From a virus (lineage: Duplodnaviria; Caudoviricetes): DNA of 64,000 nt. Below are positions 9,697 through 24,966 of the stretch, one piece after another. The notes below the pieces were generated by a model, which saw only the letters and a program-made list of their open reading frames with translations, was not told the origin of the DNA and did not search any database. The translations under genes were made by a program, and so were the position numbers. Position 1 is the first letter of the stretch; each line of letters begins with the position of its first letter. The DNA lies in the IMG/VR virus record IMGVR_UViG_3300024344_003081, one strand, 5' to 3'.

Positions 9697-9704
9697 GAGA
9701 TATT

Positions 9705-10436
9705 ATGGCTGAAGAACATGAATTGATTAAAAAACACGCTAATGAAGCAATACAAGCATTAGTTCCATTATTAGATAATGAAAAAACACGCCATATAGGT
9801 CATGTATTATTAAAAGCAATTGACTTGGGTTTAGGTATGTTGTCAGCAGATGCTAAAGGAGAGTCTAGTGGAGCGAACAATCAAATAAGAGTAAGTGGGG
9901 CTTCTCCTCCAGGAACCGTTCCTCAAAATTTTCAGAAAGATATAGAGCAAGAAAATAAGGTACAGGGATTAGTAGATGAAACATTAAAGGAATTAGAAAT
10001 GATGGATAATCATGAATCTAATCCTGTAACTACAGACAAAGATGGTAATGAAATAGAATATGTAAAAGGAATGCTTTGTAATTGTCAATTTGCTTCTGAA
10101 TTTCACAAATACTGTGATAATCAATGTAAAGAGACTTTGATTAAAGCAGAAGGAAATCCAAAAGAATATATTAAATTTATTGATAAAGAAAGAAAAGAAC
10201 AAGATACTAAATCTCTTGATGAGGCAATGGATGAGGTTACAGGCTTTATTGATACAGAATTGGGTATTGGAGTTTCTCCTAGACCAAAACCACAACAATC
10301 ACAGCAACAAGCTCCTCAAAATGATGTACAGCAAGAAACTCCTTTAAATGAAGAAAACAAGCAATTTGCGTTAGATCCTAGTCAACCTGTTATTATGCCT
10401 GGTGAACCAACTGGACTTGAAAATGACAGTAGTTAA
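9705..10436 (+). CDS. Hypothetical acidic protein with CNC...C..QC motif
   Basis: SD AGGAGA precedes ATG 9705 (track start 9690 is TTG). Confidence 0.7.
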   Translation: MAEEHELIKKHANEAIQALVPLLDNEKTRHIGHVLLKAIDLGLGMLSADAKGESSGANNQIRVSGASPPGTVPQNFQKDIEQENKVQGLVDETLKELEMMDNHESNPVTTDKDGNEIEYVKGMLCNCQFASEFHKYCDNQCKETLIKAEGNPKEYIKFIDKERKEQDTKSLDEAMDEVTGFIDTELGIGVSPRPKPQQSQQQAPQNDVQQETPLNEENKQFALDPSQPVIMPGEPTGLENDSS

Positions 10437-10677
10437 TTTATCCTCTATTAATATTATTGCAGTTCTTACTAAGATAAAAAAATTAGAAGAAAGTAATATT
10501 TCAAATAAATATTCTCGTATAGTTGATTTATTAGATTCTACAAAATCAAGATTTGATGTTTCTCTTGATTCATATAAAAATGTGGAATTATTAGCAGATC
10601 ATATAGAATTTTCAACAACGGGCTTAATTCTTTGGCAAAGAATGAGAGATAAATATAACGACTTAGCGGACAAATGA
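10423..10677 (+). CDS. Hypothetical protein (~84 aa)
   Basis: ATG 10423; ATGA overlap with the next gene. Confidence 0.55.
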   Translation: MTVVNLSSINIIAVLTKIKKLEESNISNKYSRIVDLLDSTKSRFDVSLDSYKNVELLADHIEFSTTGLILWQRMRDKYNDLADK

Positions 10678-11657
10678 TGGCATTCAATGATATACCTGGA
10701 AATTCAACATGGAAAACTGTAAAATGTGATAACGAAATTGTTTCACTTGCTAATGGAAGTGAGCCTGATAAATTTGATCAAATTTTAGATTTATTAAAAT
10801 TAAATAAACAATATTATTTAGAAAATGGAACTACAGAAAACGAATGGCTTGATCGAGTTTCGGGCTTTGCTTGTCAGAGACCATATGTATCAACAACGAA
10901 TGAAGAACGATCTAAAGGAGAAGAATTGGGATTTTATGAAGATTTAGGTAGCCCTGATTGGGAGGCTTCTCAGAATGATTCCAAGATTACTGACCTTGCT
11001 AATGGAAGCGAATCCGATAAATATGATCAAATTTTAAATATATTAAAAACAAATAAAGAATATTATTTAAAAACTGCAGTAACCGAAGATCAATGGACTG
11101 ATAGAGTTTTATATTTTGCATATCAAAGAGGATCTGATGTTAGTGGTGATCCATTTATTGTAGATGATGCACCAGTATTACCTCTTGACTATATGGATTC
11201 TAAAGATATATCATGGTTTAATAGTGATATGAGATGGGAAATCGCAATGAAAATTTTAATTAATGCAATTGATGAAAAAGGAAAAACTTGGTATACAACT
11301 GAAACTGCTCAAACTCCTGATGGTAATATAGCTGGACCAAATGATTCTCAAATTTCTAGTTTAAGTTGGTTGCCATCAAATTGTATATCATTACATAATA
11401 AACTTATAAGTTCTACTTATTCTAAGTTCATATATATTATCAAGTTAAGTAATGTTCATTTGAGATATTCTGAACCATCAAAAATATTTGATGAAATTGA
11501 TACCGAAAACACTACTGCCATTTCAAATCTCAATACATCTCAATTGACAGATTTATTAGCATATGTTAGAGAAGCATATGTAAGTCGTCCAGACGATAAA
11601 ACAAATGAAAATTTTGAAGCCGCATGTGAAATGCTAGAGTTTGATATGGCACAATAA
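10674..11657 (+). CDS. Hypothetical protein with internal tandem duplication of a ~50-aa domain
   Basis: LANGSEPDKFDQILDLLKLNKQYYLE...EWLDRV and LANGSESDKYDQILNILKTNKEYYLK...QWTDRV. Confidence 0.72.
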   Translation: MMAFNDIPGNSTWKTVKCDNEIVSLANGSEPDKFDQILDLLKLNKQYYLENGTTENEWLDRVSGFACQRPYVSTTNEERSKGEELGFYEDLGSPDWEASQNDSKITDLANGSESDKYDQILNILKTNKEYYLKTAVTEDQWTDRVLYFAYQRGSDVSGDPFIVDDAPVLPLDYMDSKDISWFNSDMRWEIAMKILINAIDEKGKTWYTTETAQTPDGNIAGPNDSQISSLSWLPSNCISLHNKLISSTYSKFIYIIKLSNVHLRYSEPSKIFDEIDTENTTAISNLNTSQLTDLLAYVREAYVSRPDDKTNENFEAACEMLEFDMAQ

Positions 11658-11673
11658 TATATTGAGGAATATA

Positions 11674-12057
11674 ATGGTTACTAGAGAAGAAATTGAACAA
11701 AAGTGTAAAGACGCTTTTGATGAAGCAGGCATGGGCCTTTCCTTCCCAGAAATTACACCAGAAAAAAATATAGCACAGGATCTTGATATTGATTCAATTC
11801 ATATTTTAGAGACTATGATTCTTATTGAAGATGAATTTGATATTATGTTAGATGCTGAAGAATTTCAAAAAGCAACTACTGTAAGGGATCTTTATGATTT
11901 AGTTGAAGTAAAAATAAAACAAGGAGCTAAAATTAAAGAACTTGAAAAAGAAGCAGGCGATGATGAAAAAGCTAGAAACAGATTATTAGAACAACTAAAG
12001 AAAGATAAAGAAGCAGGTACAGGGGTTTATGAAATGAGCCAATATGAGAAAAAGTAA
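11674..12057 (+). CDS. acpP: Acyl carrier protein with charged C-terminal extension
   Basis: DLDIDSIHILETMILIEDEFDI matches the ACP helix II motif with the phosphopantetheine Ser in DS; SD GAGGA before ATG 11674. Confidence 0.88.
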   Translation: MVTREEIEQKCKDAFDEAGMGLSFPEITPEKNIAQDLDIDSIHILETMILIEDEFDIMLDAEEFQKATTVRDLYDLVEVKIKQGAKIKELEKEAGDDEKARNRLLEQLKKDKEAGTGVYEMSQYEKK

Positions 12058-13168
12058 AATATCAGGACTTGGTGACTATGGTGTATTTATAGATGATGTA
12101 TCATTAGCAGAAATGTCTGATAATGATTGGATGCAATTAGGAAAAGAACATCTTACAGATTTAGTTACAATTATTAGAAATGTAGATATTCAACCATCTG
12201 AATTTGAACGTAAGATGTATTTATGGGGCGCCCCATATGTTATAGATGGATATCGTATTAAGAAAAAATATGAAAAAAAATTAGGAATATCTAATTTATA
12301 TACATTATTCAAACGTGATCTTTTAGAAGAAGAAGATCGCCGACATGCAGAAAATTTAACGTGGTATATTGCGGCAGGGGATAATTTTACAGAAGAAGAG
12401 GTTCCTGCTGATTCTCATTTAATTCGTATAACTGGTATGAAAGAGAATGGGAGAAGTATGGGAATGTTTGCTGAAGGAGAATTGGGCTGGCATTCTAATG
12501 AAGCGGGTTCGCTTTGCTTTACTCCTGGTGTTGCACTCATGGGCATAAAAGGAATGGTGGGGTCTTCAACAGGATTTGTTTGTTCTGCAACTTGGTACGA
12601 AAAGCAAAGAGATTCTTTTAAAAGAGAATTAGATGATATGACTGTTATTTTTAAATATCAAAATTATGAAACTGCTCCTGAATTAAATAAAGATCAAGAT
12701 GATTCATTTCGTTGGAATCAAACGTTTGAACCGATTGAACTTCCACTGGTTATTACAACCCCTGGAGGAATAAAAGGTCTGCATTATTCTCCTGGTACAG
12801 TAGAGAGAACTAAATTTTTAGATGATTTAGACAAAGAATTATTTGTAGATGAATATACTTATCATCACAAGTATGAAAGAAATAATGATATATTACTTTT
12901 TGATAATTGTATTACTTTGCATAATAGACAAGGATCCCCCATTGAACGAGTGGCTTATCGAGAACCATGTGATTATGCTCAGTTAATTCCTGATGGATAT
13001 AATTATTATTCCCAAGAGCCTTATAAAACACAATTTGAAGAAATGAGAAAAGACATACAGGAAACTCTTGGTGTTAAATCTATAGCTGAACAGAATATGG
13101 TTTTTAAAAAATATATTCAACCAAAATTCCCCAAAAGAGAATGGAAAAACAATGATCTAGTGAGGTAA
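12044..13168 (+). CDS. TauD/TfdA-family Fe(II)/2-oxoglutarate dioxygenase-like protein
   Basis: GELGWHSNE (WHxD-like) and ILLFDNCITLHNR (W/FDNxxxxHxR) motifs. Confidence 0.78.
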   Translation: MRKSKISGLGDYGVFIDDVSLAEMSDNDWMQLGKEHLTDLVTIIRNVDIQPSEFERKMYLWGAPYVIDGYRIKKKYEKKLGISNLYTLFKRDLLEEEDRRHAENLTWYIAAGDNFTEEEVPADSHLIRITGMKENGRSMGMFAEGELGWHSNEAGSLCFTPGVALMGIKGMVGSSTGFVCSATWYEKQRDSFKRELDDMTVIFKYQNYETAPELNKDQDDSFRWNQTFEPIELPLVITTPGGIKGLHYSPGTVERTKFLDDLDKELFVDEYTYHHKYERNNDILLFDNCITLHNRQGSPIERVAYREPCDYAQLIPDGYNYYSQEPYKTQFEEMRKDIQETLGVKSIAEQNMVFKKYIQPKFPKREWKNNDLVR

Positions 13169-13169
13169 A

Positions 13170-13787
13170 ATGAAAAAAATGATGATAACAGGTGTGAGTT
13201 CTGGTTTAGGAAAAGCACTTTTTGAATATTATGATGGAAAATATATTCAAAAATATAAAGATGTAATAGAAGTTGAAGGTCACAGTAGAAGATATAATCA
13301 ACATGATATTCAAGACATTAAAGATTGGTTTGATCCTGAAGCAGATATTTTTATCAATAATGCATATAGTGATCTGAGATGGTGGACTCAAACGAATGCA
13401 TTATTATATTCTTTTTCAGTTTGGGCAGATAAACCCGATAAACATATTGTGTCTATAAGTTCAATTGCACAGGAAAAAGATACTGATGGATGGCCTATTG
13501 GTCATAGTAGATATTCAGTAGGAAAAATTTCTCTTGATAAAATGAATTTAGACTGTCATGAAAAAGTAGCAAAAAAACATGGATGTAAAGTTTCTAATTT
13601 AAGACTTGGTTGGGTAGAAACACCTAGAACAACAAGAATAAGTACTGTAGTAAGTCGTTTATATGATGTTGATCCTGTTAAGCAAACAACTGGAACAATG
13701 TTGAGTACAGATGAATGTATAGATGCTATAGACTTTATGTTAAATCATAGTGGAAGAGTAAGAGAAATGACATTGGAGGCAAAATGA
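13170..13787 (+). CDS. Short-chain dehydrogenase/reductase (SDR)
   Basis: ITGVSSGLG Rossmann motif, INNA, YSVGK (YxxxK). Confidence 0.88.
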   Translation: MKKMMITGVSSGLGKALFEYYDGKYIQKYKDVIEVEGHSRRYNQHDIQDIKDWFDPEADIFINNAYSDLRWWTQTNALLYSFSVWADKPDKHIVSISSIAQEKDTDGWPIGHSRYSVGKISLDKMNLDCHEKVAKKHGCKVSNLRLGWVETPRTTRISTVVSRLYDVDPVKQTTGTMLSTDECIDAIDFMLNHSGRVREMTLEAK

Positions 13788-14812
13788 GCAAGGTGTTACA
13801 AATAGCAACTAGACATCCTGAAAATGAACATCATAATAAAGATTTTGCCGCAGAATTAAAATTATGGTGGGAAGAAAAAGGATATTCGGGTAGAGTTTTT
13901 GATAGATATCTTCCATTAACGGGTGTTGAAACTCGATATGCTTGTTATAATCGAGAGGAGATGAGAGAAAAATCTCAAACGTTTACTCAAAAAAATAAAA
14001 CATTTAATGAAGTTGCTATAAAATTATCATTAGAATGTGTAAAGGAATTGGAATTTAATCCACAAGATGTTTGTATGTTAACATCAACTACTATGACAGG
14101 TGTTGGTATTCCTACGATTCCCCATACAATATTAAAAGAATTTAATTTTCCAGAATCAATGATTAAAATACCCATGTTTGGTCTAGCATGTAATGGAGGC
14201 ACTCATATTTTAGGAATAGCAAATGAATATTTAAAAGGTAATCCAGACAAGTTAGTTATAGCAATGACTAACGATTTATGTTCAATGAATTTGTGTCCTG
14301 AACATGCTACATTAACAACTGTTTTTGGATCTGTAATATTTGGTGATGGAATTAGTGCTATTTTAATTGCAGGAGATAATTATAATGATGCACCAGGATG
14401 GAAATTACATAAACATGTGTCATATGTTTTACCAGATACAGAAGATTATATTACTCTTCAAGGATTAAGTGAAGGATTATTATATCATGTAGAATCAACT
14501 AAATTGCAAGAAATACCAAAAGCATCTGCGGCATTTAATGATAAAATTAAAGAATTTATTGAAGGTCATACTATTAATAATTGGATATGTCATCCAGGAG
14601 GAAAAATTGTTTTAGAAAATACTGTAAAGGGGCTTAATTTACCTGAAGGTGCTTTGGATTCATCTTTTGAATTATTTCGAAATTTTGGAAATATGTCTGC
14701 AACTTCAGTAATAAAAACTTTACAGCATGATTTTGATAAAGATGGCAAAACAGTTATGATTTCTTATGGGCCAGGTTTTCAGGTTGATGTTATATTATTA
14801 GAAAAAATATGA
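13784..14812 (+). CDS. Type III polyketide synthase (chalcone/alkylresorcinol synthase family)
   Basis: Cys-His-Asn triad contexts GLACNGG, WICHPGGK.VL, FGNMSATSV; also FGDG and SYGPGF. Confidence 0.92.
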   Translation: MSKVLQIATRHPENEHHNKDFAAELKLWWEEKGYSGRVFDRYLPLTGVETRYACYNREEMREKSQTFTQKNKTFNEVAIKLSLECVKELEFNPQDVCMLTSTTMTGVGIPTIPHTILKEFNFPESMIKIPMFGLACNGGTHILGIANEYLKGNPDKLVIAMTNDLCSMNLCPEHATLTTVFGSVIFGDGISAILIAGDNYNDAPGWKLHKHVSYVLPDTEDYITLQGLSEGLLYHVESTKLQEIPKASAAFNDKIKEFIEGHTINNWICHPGGKIVLENTVKGLNLPEGALDSSFELFRNFGNMSATSVIKTLQHDFDKDGKTVMISYGPGFQVDVILLEKI

Positions 14813-15237
14813 TTTGGGGAAAAGATAAACACGATATTCGTAATAGAATTTTGTCGATGACAATAGAAAATGGCTTGGGTATAGATTTACAAACAATAGA
14901 ACCCATTCAAAAAATATATGATAAATGGGGTGATAAATTTGTTAATAAAATATTAACAGATATAGAAAAGAAAAATGCACCAAATCCCATAACTGCAAAA
15001 TATTTAACAAAATGTTGGTGTGTTAAAGAAGCATTTTCAAAAGCAATTGCATCTCCATATTTGAGACTCGATGTTAGTTATACACATTTAAAAGCTAGAG
15101 GAGCAAGATTTCCTGTTGTTCATTGTGTTATGGAACCCAAAGATTGGAATTTGAAACGACAAGATATTAGACTTTCTTTATCTGATACAAAAGATTATGT
15201 GGTCGCAATAGTTATTACAGGAGTTAATCCTTTGTGA
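14809..15237 (+). CDS. acpS: Holo-ACP synthase (AcpS-type 4'-phosphopantetheinyl transferase)
   Basis: GLGIDL, W.VKEAFSKA, LSLSDTKDYVVAIV motifs; ~140 aa. Confidence 0.85.
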   Translation: MIWGKDKHDIRNRILSMTIENGLGIDLQTIEPIQKIYDKWGDKFVNKILTDIEKKNAPNPITAKYLTKCWCVKEAFSKAIASPYLRLDVSYTHLKARGARFPVVHCVMEPKDWNLKRQDIRLSLSDTKDYVVAIVITGVNPL

Positions 15238-15959
15238 TAAAAACCTTAGACTATACAATCCCTTCTGAATGGAATAATAAAAATATTATTTCTAGTTTTA
15301 TTGATTCGGGATTTTTAGTAATTAATCATCCCTTCATAGATATGAAAGAAGGTTTACTTTCTTTTAAAGAAAAACTTAAAATACAATTAAACGAATTAGA
15401 AGAAACTGAAGAGGGGTATAGAAAAATTATATTAAAAAATTGTGATAATATTAAACAAAGATTTTTAAAAGTGGGATGTGAAATTTTATATGTTATTGAA
15501 GAATTTTTAAATGTTCCTCCAAATTCTATTGCAATGAAACATGCTGATTCTGATAATGCTTTGAGATTGGTTAAATATTATAAAGATCAGAAAGGATCAA
15601 TAAGAGTAGGAGAACATTGTGATTTTGGTACTTTAACACTTGTTCATGTTTGTGATCCTGTAGAAGAATATGAAATATTTTATGATGATAAATGGAGAAC
15701 AATAAATCATCCTAGTGATGATTTTTTGATTGTGAATATAGGTGATTTTATGCAGATTTGGTCAGATAATAAATTAAAATCTACTCCGCATAGAATAACG
15801 AATAAAACAAAAAAAGAAAGACACAGTATGATTATGTTTATGGATGCTGGTAATCATACTATTAAAGGAATTGATCATGCTACTTGGAATAAAAAAAGAA
15901 TACAAATGGCTCATACAGGAGTAACATATTATCATGACAAAGGTATCGTACAAATATAA
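15234..15959 (+). CDS. Fe(II)/2OG dioxygenase, isopenicillin-N-synthase-like
   Basis: LRLVKY, GEHCDFGTLTL (HxD), VNIGDFMQIWS...STPHR, RHS (RxS). Confidence 0.9.
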   Translation: MIKTLDYTIPSEWNNKNIISSFIDSGFLVINHPFIDMKEGLLSFKEKLKIQLNELEETEEGYRKIILKNCDNIKQRFLKVGCEILYVIEEFLNVPPNSIAMKHADSDNALRLVKYYKDQKGSIRVGEHCDFGTLTLVHVCDPVEEYEIFYDDKWRTINHPSDDFLIVNIGDFMQIWSDNKLKSTPHRITNKTKKERHSMIMFMDAGNHTIKGIDHATWNKKRIQMAHTGVTYYHDKGIVQI

Positions 15960-16692
15960 AGTATGGTTTTTAATATTAATGAATCATGTTCTAATGATAA
16001 TAGGAATTTATTATGCTATAACAGAATCATCATATTATTTGTTTATTGTACTGTTTATTGGACTTTTATTGAGTAAGTTGGGTGGAGAAATAGGAACTCA
16101 TAGATATCTTTCTCACCGATCTTTTAAAACTGGACCCATAAGAAATTTTATATTGCAAATTATGGGATTAATAAATTGTAATGGTTCACCTATGACTTGG
16201 GCTATATTGCATAGATATCATCATATGAATGCAGATAAGCCAGAAGAACCCCATTCTCCAAATATAATACCATGGTGGAAGTGCTGGTTGACTTTGTGGA
16301 ATCCTATATCTCCTAATCCAAAAGAGTATATGGATTTATTGAAAGATCCATTAGTTAAAAACATACACAAATATTATTTTTATATGATAATATTGATGTT
16401 TGGAATATTATATTTGTTAGACTGGAGATTACTTGTATTTTTAGTTTGTATTCCTTCTGTAATAACCTTTCATGGATCAACTTTATTAATAAATACTATT
16501 TCTCATAAATGGGGATATCGTAATTTTGATACTGATGATAATAGTAGAAATAATACGTGGATTAATTTTTTAATATGGGGAGGGGGCTTACATAATAATC
16601 ATCACGCTTATCCTGAAAGATATAATGAAAAAGTAACAGATAACGAAAGGGATCCTTGTGGCTGGATTATTGAAAAATTTTTTAAAATATAG
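15934..16692 (+). CDS. Membrane fatty-acid desaturase (Delta9-like) paralogue 1
   Basis: His boxes HRYLSH, HRYHH, HNNHH; hydrophobic segments. Confidence 0.92.
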   Translation: MTKVSYKYKVWFLILMNHVLMIIGIYYAITESSYYLFIVLFIGLLLSKLGGEIGTHRYLSHRSFKTGPIRNFILQIMGLINCNGSPMTWAILHRYHHMNADKPEEPHSPNIIPWWKCWLTLWNPISPNPKEYMDLLKDPLVKNIHKYYFYMIILMFGILYLLDWRLLVFLVCIPSVITFHGSTLLINTISHKWGYRNFDTDDNSRNNTWINFLIWGGGLHNNHHAYPERYNEKVTDNERDPCGWIIEKFFKI

Positions 16693-17452
16693 TAGTACTT
16701 GGCATACTCATTTAGGATTTCAAATATTATTTCATATTGTAGCGGCATTAGGAATTGTCTATAGTTCTTGGCATTGGTTATGGTTAAGTCTTATTGGAGT
16801 AATATTATTTCGACATATAGGGGGTGAAATAGGCGCCCATAGATATTATGCTCATAGAAGTTTTGAAGCAAAACCTTGGGCTCAAAAATTAATGATTATA
16901 TGTGGACTTTTTTTATATCAAGGATCGCCATATTCTTTTATTCCAATTCATAGATTACATCATCAAAAATCAGATACAATTGATGATCCTCATTCTCCCC
17001 ATTTTTTAAATTTTGTAAATGTGTATTTTCCTAGTGCGAACCAGTATTATCGTGAACCCGTGGATAAATCATATTTTGCAGATTTAATTAAAGATCCCGT
17101 TTTACAATTTTTACATAGAAATTATTTAATTATAGTAACTATACCATTGATTATAACAGCATTAATAGATTGGAGAATACCTGTTTTTCTATTTGCTATT
17201 CCAGTTGTAATTACATTTCATTCTGCGGGATTGGGAAATACTATAGGTCATTTATATGGATATAGAAATTTTGAAACAACTGATAAAAGTCAAAATTCTA
17301 CATGGGTGAACATATTAACTTTAGGATCAGGATTACATAATAATCATCATGCATATCCTGAAAGATATAATTATAAAATGACAAATAAATGGTATGAAAG
17401 AGATGATTTAAATGTTTTTTTAATCGAAAAATTATTAATGGAGAAAAAATGA
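16658..17452 (+). CDS. Membrane fatty-acid desaturase paralogue 2
   Basis: HRYYAH, HRLHH, HNNHH; exact start uncertain (GTG 16658 or TTG 16670). Confidence 0.92.
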   Translation: MAGLLKNFLKYSSTWHTHLGFQILFHIVAALGIVYSSWHWLWLSLIGVILFRHIGGEIGAHRYYAHRSFEAKPWAQKLMIICGLFLYQGSPYSFIPIHRLHHQKSDTIDDPHSPHFLNFVNVYFPSANQYYREPVDKSYFADLIKDPVLQFLHRNYLIIVTIPLIITALIDWRIPVFLFAIPVVITFHSAGLGNTIGHLYGYRNFETTDKSQNSTWVNILTLGSGLHNNHHAYPERYNYKMTNKWYERDDLNVFLIEKLLMEKK

Positions 17453-18219
17453 AAATCATTTCAAAATATAATAATACCTGGATGGCATATTTTGGATTTC
17501 AAATTTTATTTCATATATTAACTGTTGTTGGATTGTTATATTCATCATGGCATTGGCTGTGGTTGTCTTTAGTGGGCATTATTTTTTTCAGACATATTGG
17601 TGTAGAAATTGGCGCCCATCGATATTTTGCACATAAAAGTTTTAAAGCAAAACCTTGGGCTAAAAAATTAATGGCCATTTGTGGACTTTTTGCATATGGA
17701 GGAACACACTATGCTTGGATTCCTTTTCATAGACTACATCATCAAAAATCAGACACTAAATTGGATCCCCATTCACCACATCACATGAGTTTCATAGATG
17801 TTTATTTTACTAACTGGCGAGTTGAAGTGTTAGATGTTAAATTGTATCAAGATTTAATAGAAGATAAATTTTTACAATTTTTACATAGAAATTATTTAAT
17901 TATAGTAACTACACCATTAATTTTATTTGCATTGATAGATTGGAGAATATCTGTTTTTCTATTTGCTATTCCAAGTGCATTTGCACTTCATTCTGGGGGG
18001 CTGGTAAATTCTATAGGGCATTTATATGGATATAGAAATTTTGATGATACAAACGATAAAAGTCGAAATTCTACATGGGTGAATATACTAACTTTAGGAG
18101 AAGGTCTGCAGAATAATCATCATGCACATCCTGAAAGATATAATTTTAAAATGTCTAATAGATGGTATGAGACAGATTTTTTGAACGTTTTTCTAATAGA
18201 AAAGTTTTTAAAGGCGTGA
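17449..18219 (+). CDS. Membrane fatty-acid desaturase paralogue 3
   Basis: HRYFAH, HRLHH, QNNHH. Confidence 0.9.
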   Translation: MKIISKYNNTWMAYFGFQILFHILTVVGLLYSSWHWLWLSLVGIIFFRHIGVEIGAHRYFAHKSFKAKPWAKKLMAICGLFAYGGTHYAWIPFHRLHHQKSDTKLDPHSPHHMSFIDVYFTNWRVEVLDVKLYQDLIEDKFLQFLHRNYLIIVTTPLILFALIDWRISVFLFAIPSAFALHSGGLVNSIGHLYGYRNFDDTNDKSRNSTWVNILTLGEGLQNNHHAHPERYNFKMSNRWYETDFLNVFLIEKFLKA

Positions 18220-19082
18220 TAATGTTTAAATATGAGATGACACGAAATGCAATTATTATTGGGATGATGATTCATTTATCTTTTCATGTTTTATTAGTAT
18301 ATGGAATAATAACTTTTTCTTTACATTGGTTGTGGTTAACATTAATAGGAACCATTTTAATTCGACATATAGGAACTGAAATAGGCGCTCACAGGTATTA
18401 TACTCATCAAAGTTTTAAAGCAAATCCGTGGGCACAGTGGCTTATGTCTATTTTATTTGTATGGAATTATGGAGGTAGTATGTTAGCATGGTGTCCTGGA
18501 CACAGTTATCATCATAGATTTTCTGATAGTAAACATGATATACAATCTCCACATTATATAAAAAAATTTAAAGATTTTGTTAGAGTTGTTTTTCCTGCAG
18601 TATTCGCATATGAAAAATTATATAACGATGAAATTGATAAAATGAGAATGAAAAGATACATGGAATGGTTTCATGAAAAGAGGGGTTTTATGGAATTAAT
18701 GAAGAATAAACCAGCGAGATTTACTCATAATTATTATTGGTTGATTGTATCTCTTCCAATTATAATTTTACCAATAATTGATATTCGTTTATTAATCTTT
18801 CTTATAGCAATACCATGTGTAATTAATTTTTGGTCTTTGGCTCTACTAAATTTTTTTGGACATATTTCTACTATTGGAAGTTATAAAAATTTCGAAACTG
18901 ATGAGTGGGGTAACAAGGAACGTTCAGTTAATACTCTATGGTTAAATATATTTACTGGGGGAATGGGACTACAAAATAATCACCATCATAATTCAAGAGC
19001 CTATAATTTTAAAATGAATGATAAATGGCATGAAACAGATTTTTTGAATGTATTTTTAATAGAAAAATTTTTAAAGGTTTAA
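18216..19082 (+). CDS. Membrane fatty-acid desaturase paralogue 4
   Basis: HRYYTH, HSYHH, QNNHH. Confidence 0.9.
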   Translation: MIMFKYEMTRNAIIIGMMIHLSFHVLLVYGIITFSLHWLWLTLIGTILIRHIGTEIGAHRYYTHQSFKANPWAQWLMSILFVWNYGGSMLAWCPGHSYHHRFSDSKHDIQSPHYIKKFKDFVRVVFPAVFAYEKLYNDEIDKMRMKRYMEWFHEKRGFMELMKNKPARFTHNYYWLIVSLPIIILPIIDIRLLIFLIAIPCVINFWSLALLNFFGHISTIGSYKNFETDEWGNKERSVNTLWLNIFTGGMGLQNNHHHNSRAYNFKMNDKWHETDFLNVFLIEKFLKV

Positions 19083-19083
19083 C

Positions 19084-19923
19084 ATGTTCAAATTTACAGC
19101 AAATAGGTTTGCAGTTATTATGATTTCTATTATTCATACGTTATTTCATATATTAACTGTATATGGATTAATAACTTTTTCTTTACATTGGTTATGGTTA
19201 TCTTTTATTGGTGTTATATTATTACGACATATCGGTACAGAAATAGGAAATCATCGATATTTTTGTCATAGGAGTTTTGAAGCAAAACCTTGGGCAGAAT
19301 GGCTTATGATGATTGGATATGCATTTTCGTATGGAGGAAGTAATATAGCATATGCTATAGGTCATAGATGGCATCATGCTACATCTGATACTGAAAAAGA
19401 TCCAATTTCTCCTCATAACATTAAGAATGTTAAAGATGTTTTTAGAATTATAACTCAAACTTTAGGAGAACTTCAACAGGAAGAACGTAAAGATTGGAAT
19501 ATTTTTAGAAAAAGTGAAAATAAATTTTGTAAAAAATTATTTAAAAATAAAGTAGCAAGATTCAATCATGAATATTATTGGTTAATAGCACTTTCTCCCA
19601 TTGTAATTTTATCAATAATCGATATTCGTTTGTTAATATTTTTTATAGCATTACCTTGTGTTATAACTTTTTGGTCTGGAATGTTAGCACATTTTTTAGG
19701 ACATGTAATGTTATTTGGTTGTTATAGAAATTATGAAACTACAGTTGATGATCTATCGGTAAATAATCCATGGTTAAATATAATAACAGGAGGATTAGGA
19801 ACATTACATAATAATCATCATGCACATCCTGAAAGATATAATTATAAAATGTCTAATAGATGGTATGAGACAGATTTTCCCAATGTGTTTTTAATAGAAA
19901 AGTTTTTAAAACATGATAGATAA
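19084..19923 (+). CDS. Membrane fatty-acid desaturase paralogue 5
   Basis: HRYFCH, HRWHH, HNNHH. Confidence 0.92.
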   Translation: MFKFTANRFAVIMISIIHTLFHILTVYGLITFSLHWLWLSFIGVILLRHIGTEIGNHRYFCHRSFEAKPWAEWLMMIGYAFSYGGSNIAYAIGHRWHHATSDTEKDPISPHNIKNVKDVFRIITQTLGELQQEERKDWNIFRKSENKFCKKLFKNKVARFNHEYYWLIALSPIVILSIIDIRLLIFFIALPCVITFWSGMLAHFLGHVMLFGCYRNYETTVDDLSVNNPWLNIITGGLGTLHNNHHAHPERYNYKMSNRWYETDFPNVFLIEKFLKHDR

Positions 19924-20707
19924 CCTTAATAAATTATTTGTTAAAGATTTTCAAATTAGTATATTACAATATGTGTGGATTTATACCTTTCCTATCATAT
20001 CTGTATTGGGAATAATATATTCGTCATGGCATTGGTTGTTTTTAACATTAGTGGGTATAATTTTGTTTAAAGATATTGGAGGCGAAATAGGAGTCCATAG
20101 ATACTGGACACATAATTCATTTAAAGCGAAACCTTGGGTACCAAAATTATTTTCAATTTGTACAATTTTATGCTATGCTGGTAGTCCTCTTACTTGGTCA
20201 TATGTTCATAGACATCATCATGAGCATTCTGATACTGAAAAGGATGTACACTCTCCCCACCACAGCAAATGGTATCATATCTGGAGAGGATATTGGGATT
20301 TTTCAAAAATAGAAAAGTTTGATCCTAGATTCGTAGCAGATTTGTTGAAAGATGAATCAATAAAATTTGCACATCGATATCATTTATTAATTCAAATATG
20401 CGTAATCATAATAACTGTGTCTATAGATTGGAGAATATTTGTATTTTTATTTGCTCTTCCTAGTGCAATAACATTTTGGTTTGGATCTATAGCTGTTAAT
20501 ATGATGAGTCATTTGTGGGGATATCGTAATTTTGAAACACCTGATAATTCAAAAAATAATATACTTGCTTGTATTCTTGTTTCTTCTGGAGGATTACAAA
20601 ACAATCATCATTATAATCCTTCTTCATATAATTTTAAAATGTCAGATAGATGGTATGAACAAGATATGAAAAATGTGTTTCTTATTGAAAGATTTTTTAA
20701 AGCATGA
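19913..20707 (+). CDS. Membrane fatty-acid desaturase paralogue 6
   Basis: HRYWTH, HRHHH, QNNHH. Confidence 0.9.
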   Translation: MIDNLNKLFVKDFQISILQYVWIYTFPIISVLGIIYSSWHWLFLTLVGIILFKDIGGEIGVHRYWTHNSFKAKPWVPKLFSICTILCYAGSPLTWSYVHRHHHEHSDTEKDVHSPHHSKWYHIWRGYWDFSKIEKFDPRFVADLLKDESIKFAHRYHLLIQICVIIITVSIDWRIFVFLFALPSAITFWFGSIAVNMMSHLWGYRNFETPDNSKNNILACILVSSGGLQNNHHYNPSSYNFKMSDRWYEQDMKNVFLIERFFKA

Positions 20708-21468
20708 TTAATTATTATATTAAATCTAAGCGAACTCCCTATTTTTTCTTAATTAATTTAATTGCTCATTTAGCAATTATACCCGCAATTCTTTATGGCG
20801 AATGGTGGATGTGGATATTAAGTTTGATATGGTGGCAGTGGATAGGATGTACAGCATATACTACTGGGTATCATAGGTATTATACTCATAAAAGTTTTAA
20901 AGCACCGCTTTGGTATGATTATTATTTTAATTTTTTTTCTTTATTTGGTAATCCAGGACCAGTTCTTATATGGAGCGGAACACATAAATTACACCACAAA
21001 TATAGTGATACGGAATTAGATCCACATAGTCCTAAACATAAAGGATTTTGGAATGTGTGGACAAGTTTTTGGGGAATGGGAGTGTTTACAATAGATCCTC
21101 CTACAAGAGAAGATTTAAAAGATTGGTTAGAAGAAACAAAAGATCCTATTGCTAAATGGTTTTATGATAATTATCTTTCTTTAACAGTTATTATTATGAT
21201 TGTATTGTTATTCATGGGTCCTTGGTTTTTTATATTTGGTTTTTGTATTCCTACATGTTTAATACTTCATGGTTCGGGTATTATTAATGCATTTACTCAT
21301 AAGAATGGAAAACCAGAGAATAAAAATTTAGTGGCATTGATAACCGCTGGAGAAGGATGGCATTTGAATCATCATGAAGATCCATCTAATTATACGACAA
21401 GAAAAGAGTCGTATAAATGGTGGCAAGTTGACTTAAATGGTATATGGATCAATTTAATTAAAATATAG
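20704..21468 (+). CDS. Membrane fatty-acid desaturase paralogue 7 (closest to canonical Delta9)
   Basis: GYHRYYTH, HKLHH, GEGWHLNHH. Confidence 0.93.
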   Translation: MINYYIKSKRTPYFFLINLIAHLAIIPAILYGEWWMWILSLIWWQWIGCTAYTTGYHRYYTHKSFKAPLWYDYYFNFFSLFGNPGPVLIWSGTHKLHHKYSDTELDPHSPKHKGFWNVWTSFWGMGVFTIDPPTREDLKDWLEETKDPIAKWFYDNYLSLTVIIMIVLLFMGPWFFIFGFCIPTCLILHGSGIINAFTHKNGKPENKNLVALITAGEGWHLNHHEDPSNYTTRKESYKWWQVDLNGIWINLIKI

Positions 21469-21486
21469 GCTCGATATATATTAACA

Positions 21487-21517
21487 CCAGAGAATGGAAA
21501 CGAAAGTTCCGCTTTGG
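21487..21517 (+). other. Stem-loop with GAAA tetraloop upstream of the tRNA-like element
   Basis: CCAGAG/CTTTGG outer helix enclosing GGAAAC-GAAA-GTTCC. Confidence 0.5.
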
Positions 21518-21519
21518 AC

Positions 21520-21592
21520 AGGGGTGTAGTTTAATTAAAACGGCCAACAGGGTGTTGGGAAGTTGTGAGTGTAAATCTCGCCACCCCGACCA
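21520..21592 (+). tRNA. Non-canonical tRNA-Pro(GGG)-like RNA with encoded CCA
   Basis: Cloverleaf: acceptor AGGGGTG/CACCCCG plus A-CCA, D stem GTTT/AAAC, anticodon arm CCAA-CAGGGTG-TTGG, T stem GTGAG/CTCGC; lacks D-loop GG, U33 and TTC. Confidence 0.6.
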
Positions 21593-21612
21593 AAATTAAA
21601 AAAAAGTATGTT

Positions 21613-22419
21613 ATGATTACAATTAATACATGGAAAAATAATTATATTATTGCACATGATCCTCATTCAAAAATTGAAATAGATTCTTTGAATAAATTAT
21701 TTGTTTCATTAGTAGATAAAATTGGGGGTAGTGATCAAGATTCTATTGAACGAGCAAAGAGAAAAGGTGAATATTTATTAATTGCTGGACATGCAAATAT
21801 AAAATATGAATTGTTAGCAAGAACTTTTCAAGATTTTCTTAAACAATTTGAAATTGGTTATGATTGGAGAGGTGAAAGTTCTGCTGATAATATATCATTA
21901 TTTAATGAATTAAATATTTTACCAACAGAAGATCCTTCTACAGGTGCTATAGGTGGAGGAGTGCCTGATGATAATCAGAATGAAATAGAATTAGGTATTC
22001 TTCCATTGGTTACTATTCTCAATACATTTGATGGAATTAGAACTTTTGGTTCATGTGAAGGACACTATGTTAAGTCTGATTTTCTCAATGCGTATATATC
22101 ATGGACTGCTTGCAATATAAATGGACTAAATTATTCTACATTTCTTTTAAAAAATGCAATTAATGGTGTTTGGGAAAAAAGAAAATTAAATGATGATGAG
22201 AATTTTAATATAAATCAAATAATTAATAGAATTACATTAAGTTTTAATACAGGATATTGGAAGCCTGCACGTTTAAGGACTGCTCCATTACCAGGTGAAA
22301 ATTTTTATCATTTTCGTTTTGATTATGAATTTAAATTTCGATCACTTGTTTTTAATATAATAAATGATATTGCTGAACATATTATAAATGAAAAATATGA
22401 ATTGTCAAAGGAGATATAA
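21613..22419 (+). CDS. Hypothetical protein with LV..LN...GIRTFGSCEGH motif (weakly TYW3-like)
   Basis: Track start (21565 GTG) lies inside the tRNA-like element, so ATG 21613 is preferred; family guess from a short motif only. Confidence 0.6.
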   Translation: MITINTWKNNYIIAHDPHSKIEIDSLNKLFVSLVDKIGGSDQDSIERAKRKGEYLLIAGHANIKYELLARTFQDFLKQFEIGYDWRGESSADNISLFNELNILPTEDPSTGAIGGGVPDDNQNEIELGILPLVTILNTFDGIRTFGSCEGHYVKSDFLNAYISWTACNINGLNYSTFLLKNAINGVWEKRKLNDDENFNINQIINRITLSFNTGYWKPARLRTAPLPGENFYHFRFDYEFKFRSLVFNIINDIAEHIINEKYELSKEI

Positions 22420-22682
22420 TGGCTAAAATTAGTGAAATATCTAATGAGTTGAAGAAAAAACTTGAAGACACAATGCAGGGTGGATATACAGGAGGCTGTC
22501 AAGAGTGGATTAATTTAATTGCAACTGCTGAACCGTCAGAAAATGAAAAAGAAGCAAATATGTTAAAAGCGTTAAATGATTTAACAACACAATTTACAGC
22601 AACGATGTCTGGAAATGCACCAGGTGATCTGACAATTTGGTATCAAGAATTAAACTTTGCTATGAATGAATATTTGACTTAA
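22419..22682 (+). CDS. Hypothetical protein (87 aa)
   Basis: SD GGAG; TAATG coupling. Confidence 0.7.
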   Translation: MAKISEISNELKKKLEDTMQGGYTGGCQEWINLIATAEPSENEKEANMLKALNDLTTQFTATMSGNAPGDLTIWYQELNFAMNEYLT

Positions 22683-22689
22683 TAATCTT

Positions 22690-23373
22690 ATGAAAATAGA
22701 ATTTTATGGTTCTAGTATAATAGGATCAAATACTTTTCAAATAGAAAAGCCTAAAGCATTCTATGATTTGATTCTTGATCATTTCAATGCTTCTTCATTA
22801 AATTATATGATAGCACAATGTTCAGAAGAAAGGATTCTTTACAATTTAAAAAAGACCAGTGAAATTGATATAGCAATAATCTTTCATTCAACTCCTCAAT
22901 TTATATATTTTCCAAATTTTACTAGAGATTTTATTTATATGAATGATGATAGAGTTGATGATTGGGATAATCGGCAACATTTTTTAGATTATGTTGATGC
23001 TTTTAAACAAAACAGAAAAGACATAGTTACAAATTTTAGTGTACCTACAGAACCTATTGATGCATCAATTATAAAAGATTTCATGAAATTACATTTTAAT
23101 AGAGATGTAAATAGAAATAGATTTCATGGAGCATTATCTTTAATTGATGAATATGTTTATTCAAAAAAAATACCAACAATACACGTTATAAATGATCATA
23201 TTCCTGGTTGGTTTACTTTTAAATCGGGCATTATAGATGAAGATATTTGTGAAATCGAAAAAGAATATAGTGTATCATTCAATAAATCTGTAAATGGAAT
23301 AAGTGAAGAGGGAAATAATCTTATTTTTAATAAATTAATTGGTTTGATCCAAAGTACAATACAAAGGACATAA
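22690..23373 (+). CDS. Hypothetical protein (227 aa)
   Basis: ORF; no confident motif. Confidence 0.65.
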   Translation: MKIEFYGSSIIGSNTFQIEKPKAFYDLILDHFNASSLNYMIAQCSEERILYNLKKTSEIDIAIIFHSTPQFIYFPNFTRDFIYMNDDRVDDWDNRQHFLDYVDAFKQNRKDIVTNFSVPTEPIDASIIKDFMKLHFNRDVNRNRFHGALSLIDEYVYSKKIPTIHVINDHIPGWFTFKSGIIDEDICEIEKEYSVSFNKSVNGISEEGNNLIFNKLIGLIQSTIQRT

Positions 23374-23377
23374 ACCA

Positions 23378-23385
23378 TATAAATA
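23378..23385 (+). promoter_or_regulatory. T4-type late promoter
   Basis: Exact TATAAATA in the intergenic region ahead of the head genes; gp55 is encoded in the window. Confidence 0.75.
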
Positions 23386-23417
23386 TAAATTAGATAACGA
23401 AATTTATTTAGAGGGTT

Positions 23418-23996
23418 ATGAAAAAATTTAAAGATTTATCAGCAACGGCTAAAAAAGAAGTAAAAGAGCATTTTAGTGGTGTTCCACATCAACATCCTCA
23501 TGGAAAAATGAATTATGATGATGTTGAGGGGAGAATGGCTAAACAAAGTTTATACAAACTACACAAATATAGTAGAGAACTTTTTGAAATGCTCGATGAT
23601 CATACAGAATTAGAAGCATGGGTTCAAGATAAAATTTCAAGAGCATGTTCTTATATAAGTTCTGTAAAGCATTTTCTTGAATATGAAATGGATCATGGTT
23701 CAGAAGATAATCCTTATGAGGAATTCGAATATGATGATGATCTGGATATGATTGAAGATGTTCATCATATTGATGATTTAATTCCATTACTCAAGCAAAT
23801 TTATAAAGTTCAAGAATCACATAAAATAAATTTGAAAGATGTTCAAGTAATTGTTGAACCTGATGATGCAGAGGTTTTATACGAAACTTATAAAAAATTA
23901 AATGACGAAAATAAGAAAGAATTTTCTAAAAAAATATTTGAAAGTAAAGAAGATTTTTGGAATATGGTTTCTTTTTCTAGAAGCAGAGGAGAATAA
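23418..23996 (+). CDS. Hypothetical head-module protein (192 aa)
   Basis: First ORF after the late promoter; EGRMAKQ...LEAWVQDKIS segment. Confidence 0.65.
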   Translation: MKKFKDLSATAKKEVKEHFSGVPHQHPHGKMNYDDVEGRMAKQSLYKLHKYSRELFEMLDDHTELEAWVQDKISRACSYISSVKHFLEYEMDHGSEDNPYEEFEYDDDLDMIEDVHHIDDLIPLLKQIYKVQESHKINLKDVQVIVEPDDAEVLYETYKKLNDENKKEFSKKIFESKEDFWNMVSFSRSRGE

Positions 23997-23999
23997 TTA

Positions 24000-24248
24000 A
24001 TGGCTTATAAACTACTTGGTGCCTTAGTAACCGATCCAGCAAATAATACTATTGGTTCAGCAACTACAGTTGCATGTAACATAGAAACTGCGGGAACCGT
24101 AGAAGTACAGGGACCTGCAATAAATGGTGGATCTTGGGAATCTAAAGGAACGATTAAACTTCCTGTAGGAATACATAAAATTCTTAAAAATTCTGATTGG
24201 AGTGTAACTTTTACGGGTCAGGCAACTTCAGTAGCACATTCGGACTAA
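24000..24248 (+). CDS. Hypothetical head-module protein (82 aa)
   Basis: SD GAGGAG; beta-rich small protein. Confidence 0.65.
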   Translation: MAYKLLGALVTDPANNTIGSATTVACNIETAGTVEVQGPAINGGSWESKGTIKLPVGIHKILKNSDWSVTFTGQATSVAHSD

Positions 24249-24256
24249 GGTCATGA

Positions 24257-24565
24257 ATGAAGAGAATACATAAAATAAGTCGTGTTCGAACTATTGGTGG
24301 TAGACGAAAAGCATTTAGAAATATTTTTAGAAAAAATAGAGGACTGATTGGTAAGGGATATAGAAAGGTTGCAGGTAAGAAAATTCTTAAAAAAATGACT
24401 GCAAAAGAAAGAAAGAAATTTAATCCTAAAACTAATCTGAAAATAAGACAGTCTTTAAGAAAAAGAAAAATAAAACAGAGATTAATAAACATAAAAAGAA
24501 AAAAAACATTAAGGTCTGGATTATTTAGAGGAATTTCAAAGCTAAATAAAAATATAAAAAGATGA
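24257..24565 (+). CDS. Highly basic protein (Lys/Arg-rich), possible prohead core or DNA-binding protein
   Basis: Composition; position upstream of gp21. Confidence 0.6.
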   Translation: MKRIHKISRVRTIGGRRKAFRNIFRKNRGLIGKGYRKVAGKKILKKMTAKERKKFNPKTNLKIRQSLRKRKIKQRLINIKRKKTLRSGLFRGISKLNKNIKR

Positions 24566-24963
24566 AAATATTCAGAGAATTTAAAGACGAAGCAGAATAT
24601 CAGCATGTTCCTCTAGAGGAAAGAAAGTTTACTCTTCAACAAAGATTGAAAGCGGGACAACGGGCTAGGAGAAGGTCTAAGTTGTTGAAGAGAGCAAAAC
24701 AAAGAGCATTGAGAAGAATTGCGAGTCCAGAAGTATTACAAAAGCGGGCTAGAAGAACGGCTAGAAATATAATGAAAAGCAGAATTGCTAGAGGACAAAG
24801 CCTTTCACAAATGTCTCCTGCTCAAAAAATAATGCTTGCGACAAGATTAGAGAAATTTTTACCAAGAATTAAAAAAATGGCTAAAAGATTAGTAAAAGTT
24901 AAAAGAAAAGAAGAATTAGCACGTAAAAGAAACAGAACAAAAACACCAGGTCAAAAAGGTTAA
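24562..24963 (+). CDS. Prohead core protein, gp68-like
   Basis: Arg/Lys-rich (QQRLKAGQRARRRSK...KRARRTARN); immediately upstream of gp21. Confidence 0.6.
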   Translation: MKIFREFKDEAEYQHVPLEERKFTLQQRLKAGQRARRRSKLLKRAKQRALRRIASPEVLQKRARRTARNIMKSRIARGQSLSQMSPAQKIMLATRLEKFLPRIKKMAKRLVKVKRKEELARKRNRTKTPGQKG

Positions 24964-24966
24964 GTT

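Follow-up and report, generated by a model that had tools for sequence, protein, structure and literature searches.

A putative carrier-protein-based biosynthetic cassette for a multiply unsaturated lipid in the hypervariable island of a lytic T4-like marine phage

The DNA analyzed here, a 64,000-nucleotide stretch of a tailed virus genome (IMG/VR record IMGVR_UViG_3300024344_003081, Caudoviricetes; hereinafter, the window), encodes on the plus strand, between positions 11674 and 21468, 13 back-to-back genes, the majority with start/stop overlaps of at least 4 bp, for an acyl carrier protein (ACP), a 4'-phosphopantetheinyl transferase (PPTase) of the AcpS type, a type III polyketide synthase (PKS), a short-chain dehydrogenase/reductase (SDR)-like protein, two soluble Fe(II) oxygenases and seven membrane desaturases. 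With a probability that we put at roughly 0.55, these genes represent a self-contained, carrier-protein-based cassette, which a lytic marine myophage, T4-like and of the pelagimyophage/Melnitz type, carries in a hypervariable island and which makes an oxidized, multiply unsaturated long-chain polyketide lipid in the course of infection. By analogy, the product could be of the alkenyl-pyrone or alkenyl-resorcinol type, an assignment that we make with less assurance than that of the cassette itself.

The genes and their family assignments are listed in Table 1, where a Pfam assignment is counted as passed when the score is above the gathering cut-off. A first-pass annotation, made from the DNA alone, had listed this same set (ACP, AcpS, type III PKS, SDR, two dioxygenases and seven desaturases), and the list is borne out, coordinates and strand included. 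It had also named confirmation with hidden Markov models as a check: the ACP, the TauD-like oxygenase, the PKS, the AcpS-type PPTase, the 2-oxoglutarate (2OG) oxygenase and five desaturases score above the Pfam cut-offs, and the SDR-like protein and two desaturases score below the applicable cut-offs. The accompanying statement that the catalytic motifs are intact throughout holds for the PKS triad, the HCD...H...RxS motif of the 2OG oxygenase and the His boxes of the desaturases and is less certain for the TauD-like protein, in which WHSNE takes the place of HxD.

The DSI serine and helix II of the ACP are invariant across six homologs. Both the ACP and the AcpS-type PPTase match the corresponding NCBIfam models (AcpP-type, E 4e-12, and holo-ACP synthase, E 1e-13, respectively) below the equivalog cut-offs of these models, so that neither is an ortholog of the housekeeping AcpP or AcpS. 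The solved structure closest to the PKS is Mycobacterium tuberculosis Pks11 (E 2.4e-29, ~30% identity), an alkylpyrone synthase that uses long-chain acyl starters; C136 (GLACNGG), H270 (CHPGG) and N303 (GNMSAT) of the phage protein align with the Pks11 triad. The Cys-His-Asn triad is retained in 10 of the 11 homologs; Gln replaces the catalytic His (CQPGG) in one PKS cluster (P0003, 17 member sequences). The phage PKS family consists of 20 clusters, with 68-100% identity, that form a tight clade, the next matches in profile searches being only 22-25% identical; some of the homologs are labeled 'alkylresorcinol/alkylpyrone synthase' in a JGI source. The SDR-like gene is located directly upstream of the PKS gene in all variants of the cassette and overlaps its start by 4 bp. 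Its signature motifs (TGxxxGxG, NNAY, Ser and YxxxK) are invariant over six homologs, and the best matches of its profile in the Protein Data Bank (PDB) are the FabG structures 2p68 (E 9e-4) and 2ph3 (E 2.7e-3), both weak; this is the weakest family assignment among the cassette genes.

The 2OG oxygenase is encoded in all six cassette variants compared here and matches TraH, SpoC and plant 2OG dioxygenases in the PDB. For the TauD-like protein, phmmer against the PDB sequences yielded no matches, as was also the case for the SDR-like protein. Its AlphaFold2 (AF2) model (pLDDT 85) retrieves TauD (1os7 and 1gy9) as the top Foldseek matches with a probability of 1.0 and TM-scores of 0.53-0.55 (query-normalized) and 0.69-0.72 (target-normalized); the lipid-modifying relatives SfaA, ScoE, MmaE and Rv0097 are among the matches. 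The W-H-S-N-E sequence that replaces HxD (with Asn at +2 and Glu at +3) is invariant in the family, and the distal His293 and the Arg residues are conserved. This gene is a variable accessory component, present in the window and in the variants L016 and L018 and absent from L023-L025. The family of TauD-fold proteins with the WHSNE motif (~350 aa) includes 377 homologs at E <=1e-5, many of them from marine metagenomes. A single mini-desaturase gene is adjacent or close to a gene of the TauD family in a cellular contig that also has flagellar, B12-radical SAM and FGE-sulfatase genes (L026, 8001-9661) and in a T4-like phage contig with gp32 and gp59 (L027, 8001-10343); this pairing may be functional.

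At the DNA level, the desaturase genes form a tandem repeat of seven copies that recur every 745-865 nt. All seven proteins contain the HxxxxH, HxxHH and (H/Q)xxHH boxes together with the Asn...His motif of the fourth transmembrane helix, the first and third boxes taking the forms HRYxxH and (H/Q)NNHH, and hydrophobic segments at about residues 10-55 and 150-195 correspond to two pairs of helices. The product of 17449-18219 aligns with mouse SCD1 (4ymk, E 2.5e-20) across the His boxes and the N...H motif; it has 6106 homologs in a representative library, and among the 150 listed, most are about 250 aa long. Glutamine is the first residue of box 3 in three of the seven proteins (17449, 18216 and 19913), which need not mean loss of function because front-end desaturases likewise bear Gln at this position. 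The two proteins without a Pfam match (19084-19923 and 20704-21468) share 20-54% identity with the remaining copies, and none of their His boxes is lost.

In the maximum-likelihood tree, the desaturases fall into three orthogroups common to several phages: A (15934), whose clade includes the orthologs from L016, L018, L023 and L025; G (20704), with orthologs in L016, L018, L023 and L024; and C, of which most variants possess a single copy, L024 two and the window five, the third of these five (18216-19082) belonging to a subclade shared with L024. The identity between paralogs is 20-69% overall and 42-69% within orthogroup C, with the metal ligands kept in all. The age of the paralogs and the conservation of the orthogroups between phages fit distinct roles rather than a dosage effect and point to functional divergence as opposed to recent amplification.

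Arrays of this kind are not confined to the T4-like phages. In unrelated phage-like contigs with GC contents of 0.41-0.49 (L020, 3714-8813, also represented by L021; and L022, 5272-10869), a FabF-like ketosynthase gene is followed by five or six tandem mini-desaturase genes in the vicinity of tail-fiber (Peptidase_S74) genes. Four desaturase orthogroups are common to the two arrays, and no ACP with a Pfam match is encoded within 8 kb of either.

We compared six variants of the cassette that occupy the same genomic site in related phages (the window, L016/17/19, L018, L023, L024 and L025). The ACP, SDR, PKS, AcpS, one 2OG oxygenase and at least two desaturases (range 2-7) constitute a constant core that is present in 6 of the 6, and the additional oxygenases, a dehydratase and the number of desaturases vary. 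L016/17/19 and L018 combine the core with three desaturases, one or two 2OG oxygenases, the TauD-like protein and an extra protein of 297-303 aa; L023 and L025 encode three and two desaturases, respectively, along with a Ring_hydroxyl_A domain protein; and L024 encodes three desaturases, an Asp/Asn-hydroxylase-type cupin and a FabA/ApeP-like dehydratase whose gene adjoins that of the PKS. In a close relative, G001:C1, which is 94-96% identical to the window from 23.4 kb onward and possesses the radical SAM genes located upstream of the cassette (see below), none of the open reading frames (ORFs) of the island resembles a PKS, desaturase, ACP or AcpS; the cargo at this site is an AMP-binding enzyme, an SBF-family transporter, an Asp/Asn hydroxylase-like protein and a 2OG oxygenase. 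The notion that these genes make up a single pathway-like unit, which was already part of the first-pass annotation, is thus upheld by the recurrence of the core in all six variants and by the joint absence of PKS and desaturases in the relative.

The comparison with L024 reveals a sharp contrast between the cassette and its flanks (Table 1): synonymous divergence (dS) is 0.4-0.94 within the cassette compared to 0.006-0.03 in both flanks. The dN/dS ratios for each cassette gene compared with L024 are in the range of 0.09 to 0.45, indicative of purifying selection. Together, these values imply a recombining, functionally constrained module and, on this sequence evidence, the cassette of ~10.6 kb (~10.85-21.47 kb) is exchanged as a unit between near-identical phages. 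The block that was initially delineated is sound with respect to its gene content, but the left edge lies at ~10.85 kb, about 1 kb before the start given originally, and the hypervariability and the exchange of the unit had been overlooked.

The first gene within the variable region encodes a 327-aa protein (10674-11657) that shows 62% identity to its L024 counterpart vs 93-99% for the flanking proteins; a homolog is found upstream of the ACP gene in every variant for which the upstream region is available. This protein has no match in Pfam, PHROG or PDB, and its AF2 model (all-helical, pLDDT 75) has no significant fold match; Foldseek against PDB, VIA-align wide and the Atlas yield generic helical repeats alone. 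The gap that closes the cassette on the right contains a hairpin (21544-21558, CCAACAGGGTGTTGG) with a perfect 6-bp stem and a 3-nt loop, which coincides with the jump in identity to L024 and is assigned to the minus strand by a scan for terminator-like structures. Given the high AT content of this DNA, scans for promoters and terminators carry no information, the counts being the same as in shuffled controls, and T4 late-promoter motifs on the plus strand are found at 3535, 23378 and 25618, with none within the cassette.

The arrangement is not an artifact of one assembly. The exact TauD-like protein and the exact fifth desaturase (19084-19923) are each encoded on at least 22-24 independently assembled marine contigs of up to 172 kb, from ENA, JGI and Tara Oceans assemblies, with the same gene order and all seven desaturases, the fourth being split in one. 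In L044 (3139-3999), the counterpart of the desaturase 18216-19082 consists of a 103-aa and a 146-aa piece; this copy could be broken in a population variant, or the split could stem from misassembly. An assembly chimera, the refutation that the first-pass annotation had itself named, is excluded, as far as sequence data allow, by these independent contigs from several projects. Phage genes on the same strand on both sides of the cassette and the uniform GC content (0.30 in the cassette, 0.33 and 0.31 in the flanks) also argue against a fusion of host chromosomal and phage DNA, as does the lack of any close relative of the PKS in 185,579 species genomes by a pattern scan, which distant relatives could escape. 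Apart from the unusual gene content, such a fusion is favored only by the filing of a related phage contig in a metagenome-assembled genome (MAG), and we consider its probability negligible. The contig in question, PAAV01000055.1, a 161-kb T4-like sequence (L015, that is, G001:C1:98000-115000; L029), is part of the MAG 'Chloroflexota bacterium isolate NAT137'; its GC content is 0.29-0.33 compared to ~0.40 in three other contigs of the bin, which makes the binning doubtful. The contig is probably mis-binned, and we rejected the bin as a basis for assigning a host.

Scans of IMG/VR for the PKS returned four contigs only, and in 50,697 GenBank phage records, the only other type III PKS is that of Streptomyces phage ZL12 (22% identity over 71% of the query). 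A related single desaturase is present, among the GenBank phage records, only in Pelagibacter phage Mosig and one Acinetobacter phage. The full-text literature yielded no description of a phage-encoded type III PKS combined with an ACP and a desaturase array; for the pathway that the first-pass annotation was unable to place in a lytic-type phage, we found no described counterpart in either the literature or the GenBank phages.

Taken together, the gene content suggests the following route. The phage AcpS, judging by its family membership, would convert the phage ACP to the holo form. The ACP would then be loaded with an acyl chain, probably via the type II fatty acid synthase of the host, which we propose because the cassette contains no loading enzyme; this is the weakest step. 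The seven SCD1-type membrane di-iron enzymes would each carry out a distinct desaturation or a related oxidation, and the type III PKS would take the acyl chain as a starter, add malonyl units and release the product by cyclization, with the SDR-like protein reducing a keto group. Finally, soluble Fe(II) oxygenases would hydroxylate the product, namely, the 2OG-type enzyme in all variants and the TauD-type enzyme in the window, with a Rieske-type catalytic domain or an Asp/Asn-hydroxylase-type cupin potentially serving in the relatives.

Several features of the cassette underlie this scheme. The private ACP and private PPTase imply a carrier-bound intermediate, and some type III PKSs (ArsB/C, Gcs and CylI) accept carrier-bound starters. 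The SDR and PKS genes, an invariant and overlapping pair, suggest a polyketide intermediate that undergoes reduction, and the presence of two to seven membrane di-iron enzymes along with one to three soluble oxygenases that use iron implies that a lipid-like chain is heavily tailored by oxidation. Type III PKSs release their products through cyclization and need no thioesterase, so that release of this kind would explain why the cassette has none. The Rieske-type catalytic domain encoded in some variants would at least fit a product with an aromatic ring.

Other observations weigh against this interpretation. No acyl-ACP loading enzyme or thioesterase was detected among the Pfam matches of the cassette ORFs, and a Cys pattern like that of rubredoxin or ferredoxin was absent from all plus-strand ORFs of at least 40 aa when the window was scanned for motifs. 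The substrates of most type III PKSs are CoA thioesters rather than ACP-bound chains, and SCD/DesC-type enzymes normally use acyl-CoA or membrane lipids. The ketosynthase-desaturase arrays that lack an ACP of their own imply that phage desaturases may not require a phage ACP. The SDR assignment is weak (18.2 bits vs the Pfam cut-off of 26.6), and the large TauD-like family, which is devoid of the canonical HxD, is found also away from any PKS. Furthermore, cyanophage desaturases have been shown to act on lipids (PMC5776448). The prediction of a complex between the ACP and the desaturase 17449-18219 (score 0.23, with the mark at 0.32) gives no verdict and is not used either way. The proposed pathway is built on a parts list and on co-inheritance, from which the chemistry is inferred.

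In an alternative reading, the cassette remodels membrane lipids: the PKS would function as a condensing enzyme of the KAS III/KCS type and the SDR-like protein would play the part of beta-ketoacyl reductase, with fatty acyl chains growing on the phage ACP, and the resulting unusual mono- or polyunsaturated fatty acids would be incorporated into host phospholipids and affect membrane fluidity or the timing of lysis, with no aromatic product. Such a role is consistent with the pairing of similar desaturase arrays with a FabF-like ketosynthase in other phages, the dehydratase next to the PKS in L024, FabG as the best match of the SDR profile, the weak FAE1_CUT1_RppA and ACP_syn_III_C matches of the PKS, the resemblance of the ACP to AcpP-type carriers and the documented alteration of lipid unsaturation by single phage desaturases (PMC5776448). 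However, both chalcone/stilbene synthase models match the PKS above their cut-offs, and its GPG loop and FGDG phenylalanine are those of type III PKSs and do not follow the pattern of FabH; no enoyl reductase is encoded, nor is there a dehydratase in the window; the two or three soluble oxygenases, including a ring-hydroxylase-type domain in the relatives, have no role in plain fatty acid synthesis; and hypervariability at the level of the entire cassette is unusual for a housekeeping-type function. We regard membrane remodeling as the main rival, albeit an unlikely one.

A polyyne or other acetylenic product of the caryoynencin, protegencin or jamaicamide type, with some of the desaturases acting as acetylenases on the ACP-bound chain, was the analogy drawn in the first-pass annotation. 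It stands insofar as the dedicated ACP and at least three co-inherited membrane desaturases match part of the bacterial core (PMC9828172, PMC8406139); it fails in that the fatty acyl-AMP ligase, the thioesterase and the rubredoxin, three of the seven core features (PMC8406139), are absent. Considering also that the phage enzymes are unusually short (252-288 aa) and have no polyyne-specific NCBIfam match, a product of this class seems quite improbable. We attach slightly less weight still to the idea that unrelated auxiliary genes have piled up in a hypervariable island, each acting singly on host metabolites. Such islands in pelagimyophages are known to collect varied cargo (PMC7029224), G001:C1 bears quite different cargo at the cassette site and TauD-like genes stand alone elsewhere, but the six diverged variants have the same core in the same order, the core is gained and lost together, and an ACP and a PPTase of the phage's own would be purposeless without partner enzymes.

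If the cassette indeed makes an oxidized polyketide lipid, its swapping as a unit suggests that the product serves, most likely, in an interaction under diversifying pressure, for example, superinfection exclusion, modification of the host envelope or chemical antagonism, and not in housekeeping metabolism. Tentatively, and with considerably less confidence than in the biosynthetic reading, we propose that a lytic phage might produce on a viral carrier its own multiply unsaturated, possibly acetylenic, oxidized alkyl-polyketide, as a diversifying agent directed against competing phages, the host envelope or grazers.

The phage that carries the cassette encodes homologs of gp21, gp22, gp23, gp41, gp43, gp44, gp45, gp46, gp47 and UvsX, all co-directional, and is a T4-like (Straboviridae-type) marine myophage, as recognized from the outset. 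All genes of the window are on one strand, and no tRNA genes were found in it. Among cultured phages, the nearest at the DNA level are Methylophilales phage Melnitz and Pelagibacter phages Mosig and HTVC008M, with head genes that are ~73% identical in nucleotide sequence. Beyond the head genes downstream of the cassette are those for the gp46/gp47-like nuclease subunits, clamp, clamp loader, DNA polymerase, UvsX and gp41 helicase.

Upstream of the cassette, a Cys-rich repeat protein and three radical SAM enzymes form a separate module (4075-9696) that is kept in relatives with and without the PKS cassette and looks like a phage-encoded precursor with its maturases, of the type known for RiPPs (peptides made by the ribosome and modified after translation). 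Two paralogous proteins without an assigned function (21565-22419 and 7392-8060) recur by radical SAM, 2OG and PKS genes in all related islands; an Atlas search with these proteins gave sub-threshold leads only, of the SAM-binding TYW3/MTHFR_C/DUF6919 type. Seven further cargo genes of varied families are located between the head and replication modules (28341-49559; Table 1).

Table 1. Features of the window: the cassette and its boundaries, comparison with the related phage L024, and neighboring genes
Positions	Strand	Feature	Evidence and remarks
10674-11657	+	327-aa protein with internal repeat, function unassigned	First gene within variable cassette
11674-12057 (ORF also from 11641)	+	Acyl carrier protein, 127 aa, Lys/Glu-rich C-terminal tail	Pfam PP-binding 31.5 bits (cut-off 20.8)
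12044-13168	+	TauD/TfdA-family Fe(II)/2OG oxygenase-like protein, 374 aa	Pfam TauD 42.7 bits (cut-off 27)
13170-13787	+	Short SDR-like putative ketoreductase, 205 aa	Motifs; Pfam adh_short 18.2 bits, below cut-off (26.6)
13784-14812	+	Type III polyketide synthase, 342 aa	Pfam Chal_sti_synt_N 33.0 bits, Chal_sti_synt_C 41.9 bits (cut-off 27)
14809-15237	+	AcpS-type 4'-phosphopantetheinyl transferase, 142 aa	Pfam ACPS 43.3 bits (cut-off 25)
15234-15959	+	2OG-Fe(II) oxygenase, IPNS/ACC-oxidase type, 241 aa	Pfam 2OG-FeII_Oxy 62 bits
15934-16692	+	Membrane desaturase, orthogroup A, 252 aa	Pfam FA_desaturase 58 bits; His boxes intact
16658-17452	+	Membrane desaturase, orthogroup C copy 1, 264 aa	Pfam FA_desaturase 60.7 bits; His boxes intact; tree
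17449-18219	+	Membrane desaturase, orthogroup C copy 2, 256 aa, Q first in His box 3	Pfam FA_desaturase 56.8 bits
18216-19082	+	Membrane desaturase, orthogroup C copy 3, 288 aa, insertion, Q in box 3	Pfam FA_desaturase 56.1 bits
19084-19923	+	Membrane desaturase, orthogroup C copy 4, 279 aa	NCBIfam DesA_fam_desat E 1.2e-15 (below cut-off); phrog_35201; His boxes intact; no Pfam match
19913-20707	+	Membrane desaturase, orthogroup C copy 5, 264 aa, Q in box 3	Pfam FA_desaturase 57.8 bits; His boxes
20704-21468	+	Membrane desaturase, divergent orthogroup G, 254 aa	NCBIfam DesA_fam_desat E 1e-14 (below cut-off); His boxes intact; no Pfam match
21469-21564	+	Widest intergenic gap around cassette (~97 nt), right-hand boundary	Sequence; identity to L024 jumps to 98% from 21464
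2598-10847		Left flank vs L024	DNA identity 91%; dS 0.006-0.03 (both flanks)
10995-21468		Cassette vs L024	DNA identity 66-85%; dS 0.4-0.94
21464-26386		Right flank vs L024	DNA identity 93-98%; dS 0.006-0.03 (both flanks)
3-2555	+	Tail fiber	Upstream of cassette
4075-4668	+	Cys-rich repeat protein, ~14 terminal tandem heptads CPCNC(N/D)F	Followed by radical SAM enzymes and small ORFs
4678-5964, 6169-7395, 8320-9696	+	Three radical SAM/SPASM-type enzymes	SPASM seen in G001 homolog
24967-28266	+	Prohead protease gp21, scaffold gp22, major head protein gp23	Downstream of cassette; T4 late-promoter motifs 23378, 25618
28341-28871		Methyltransferase-like protein	
31112-32152		GT1 glycosyltransferase	
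38643-39485		Asn-synthase/QueC-like protein	
39443-40705		C5 cytosine DNA methylase	
41000-43333		777-aa peptidase	
43911-45101		AAA_5 ATPase	
48471-49559		Trypsin-like protease with PDZ domain	

The enzyme families in the cassette and the logic of biosynthetic gene clusters are already known; what is new is the combination of genes, the array of seven desaturases, a PKS clade that is very divergent, the presence of the cassette in a lytic T4-like phage and its exchange as a unit. The auxiliary genes of phages typically encode single enzymes that enhance a pathway of the host and, to our knowledge, RiPPs aside, multi-step specialized-metabolite pathways are hardly known in strictly lytic phages. 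Here, a virus carries a carrier protein, its activating enzyme, a chain builder and up to ten oxidative tailoring enzymes as one unit, which is found again on many contigs from ocean metagenomes and which near-identical phages swap. Should the product prove to be a distinct compound, viruses would join the producers of marine lipid natural products, and phage-phage or phage-host conflict in abundant low-GC marine bacteria would seem to have a chemical component, with a swappable chemical locus analogous to tail-fiber or defense cassettes. In that case, together with the ketosynthase-desaturase arrays next to the tail-fiber genes of unrelated phages, the cassette would bring to light an oceanic class of lipid natural products of viral origin that has been hidden. 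The seven diverged mini-desaturases (~250 aa) and the very divergent type III PKS would, moreover, be a resource for enzymology, and the cassette, at ~10.6 kb of DNA, is directly testable.

Among the known systems, the closest in terms of the central enzyme are M. tuberculosis Pks11/Pks18, Azotobacter ArsABCD and Streptomyces SrsABC, which share with the cassette a type III PKS with the Cys-His-Asn triad; by this likeness, a lipid-type acyl starter is expected, and tailoring oxygenases are encoded nearby. Unlike the Ars and Srs systems, the cassette includes its own ACP and AcpS, an SDR partner that is invariant and 2-7 membrane desaturases, has neither a methyltransferase nor a type I fatty acid synthase and is borne by a lytic phage, with a PKS that belongs to a tight clade of its own and shows ~30% identity at best. 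The logic proposed here, of desaturating an acyl chain, extending and cyclizing it with a type III PKS and oxidizing the ring, extends, by analogy, to the sorgoleone pathway of Sorghum, where DES2/DES3 desaturases, ARS1/2 alkylresorcinol synthases and ring hydroxylation are coupled (PMC5887931, PMC8048663); however, this is a plant pathway with unclustered genes that relies on acyl-CoA instead of ACP and on a P450 and an O-methyltransferase instead of 2OG oxygenases.

The bacterial polyyne and alkyne clusters (jamABC; cay, pgn and ccn) resemble the cassette, by gene content, in the dedicated ACP, the at least three co-inherited membrane desaturases and the thiotemplated logic, and the polyyne desaturases act as a multi-desaturase set (triad) on ACP-bound chains (PMC9828172). 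The cassette differs in having no ligase, thioesterase or rubredoxin and in possessing a type III PKS, an SDR and 2OG oxygenases; an AMP-binding domain is encoded in the different cargo of G001:C1, where PKS and desaturases are both missing.

In the phage world, the cyanophage vFAD (PMC5776448) and the Mosig desaturase (31% identical to the phage desaturase) are likewise membrane desaturases of the Delta-9/DesC/SCD type in marine T4-like phages, but these are single genes that act on membrane lipids as opposed to seven tandem paralogs within an ACP/PKS cassette; in a tblastn search with the desaturase, no cyanophage record reached E 1e-3. Streptomyces phage ZL12 also encodes a type III PKS but, apart from the low similarity, is an actinophage of a Streptomyces host. 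With respect to genomic setting, the closest parallel is the 'host recognition cluster' of pelagimyophages (PMC7029224), a similarly large, non-syntenic island beside the tail-fiber genes, with radical SAM cassettes, in phages of low-GC hosts. That report describes glycosyltransferases and radical SAM cassettes and mentions a stearoyl-CoA desaturase once, in freshwater genomes; a search of its text for the terms polyketide, chalcone and acyl carrier protein found none.

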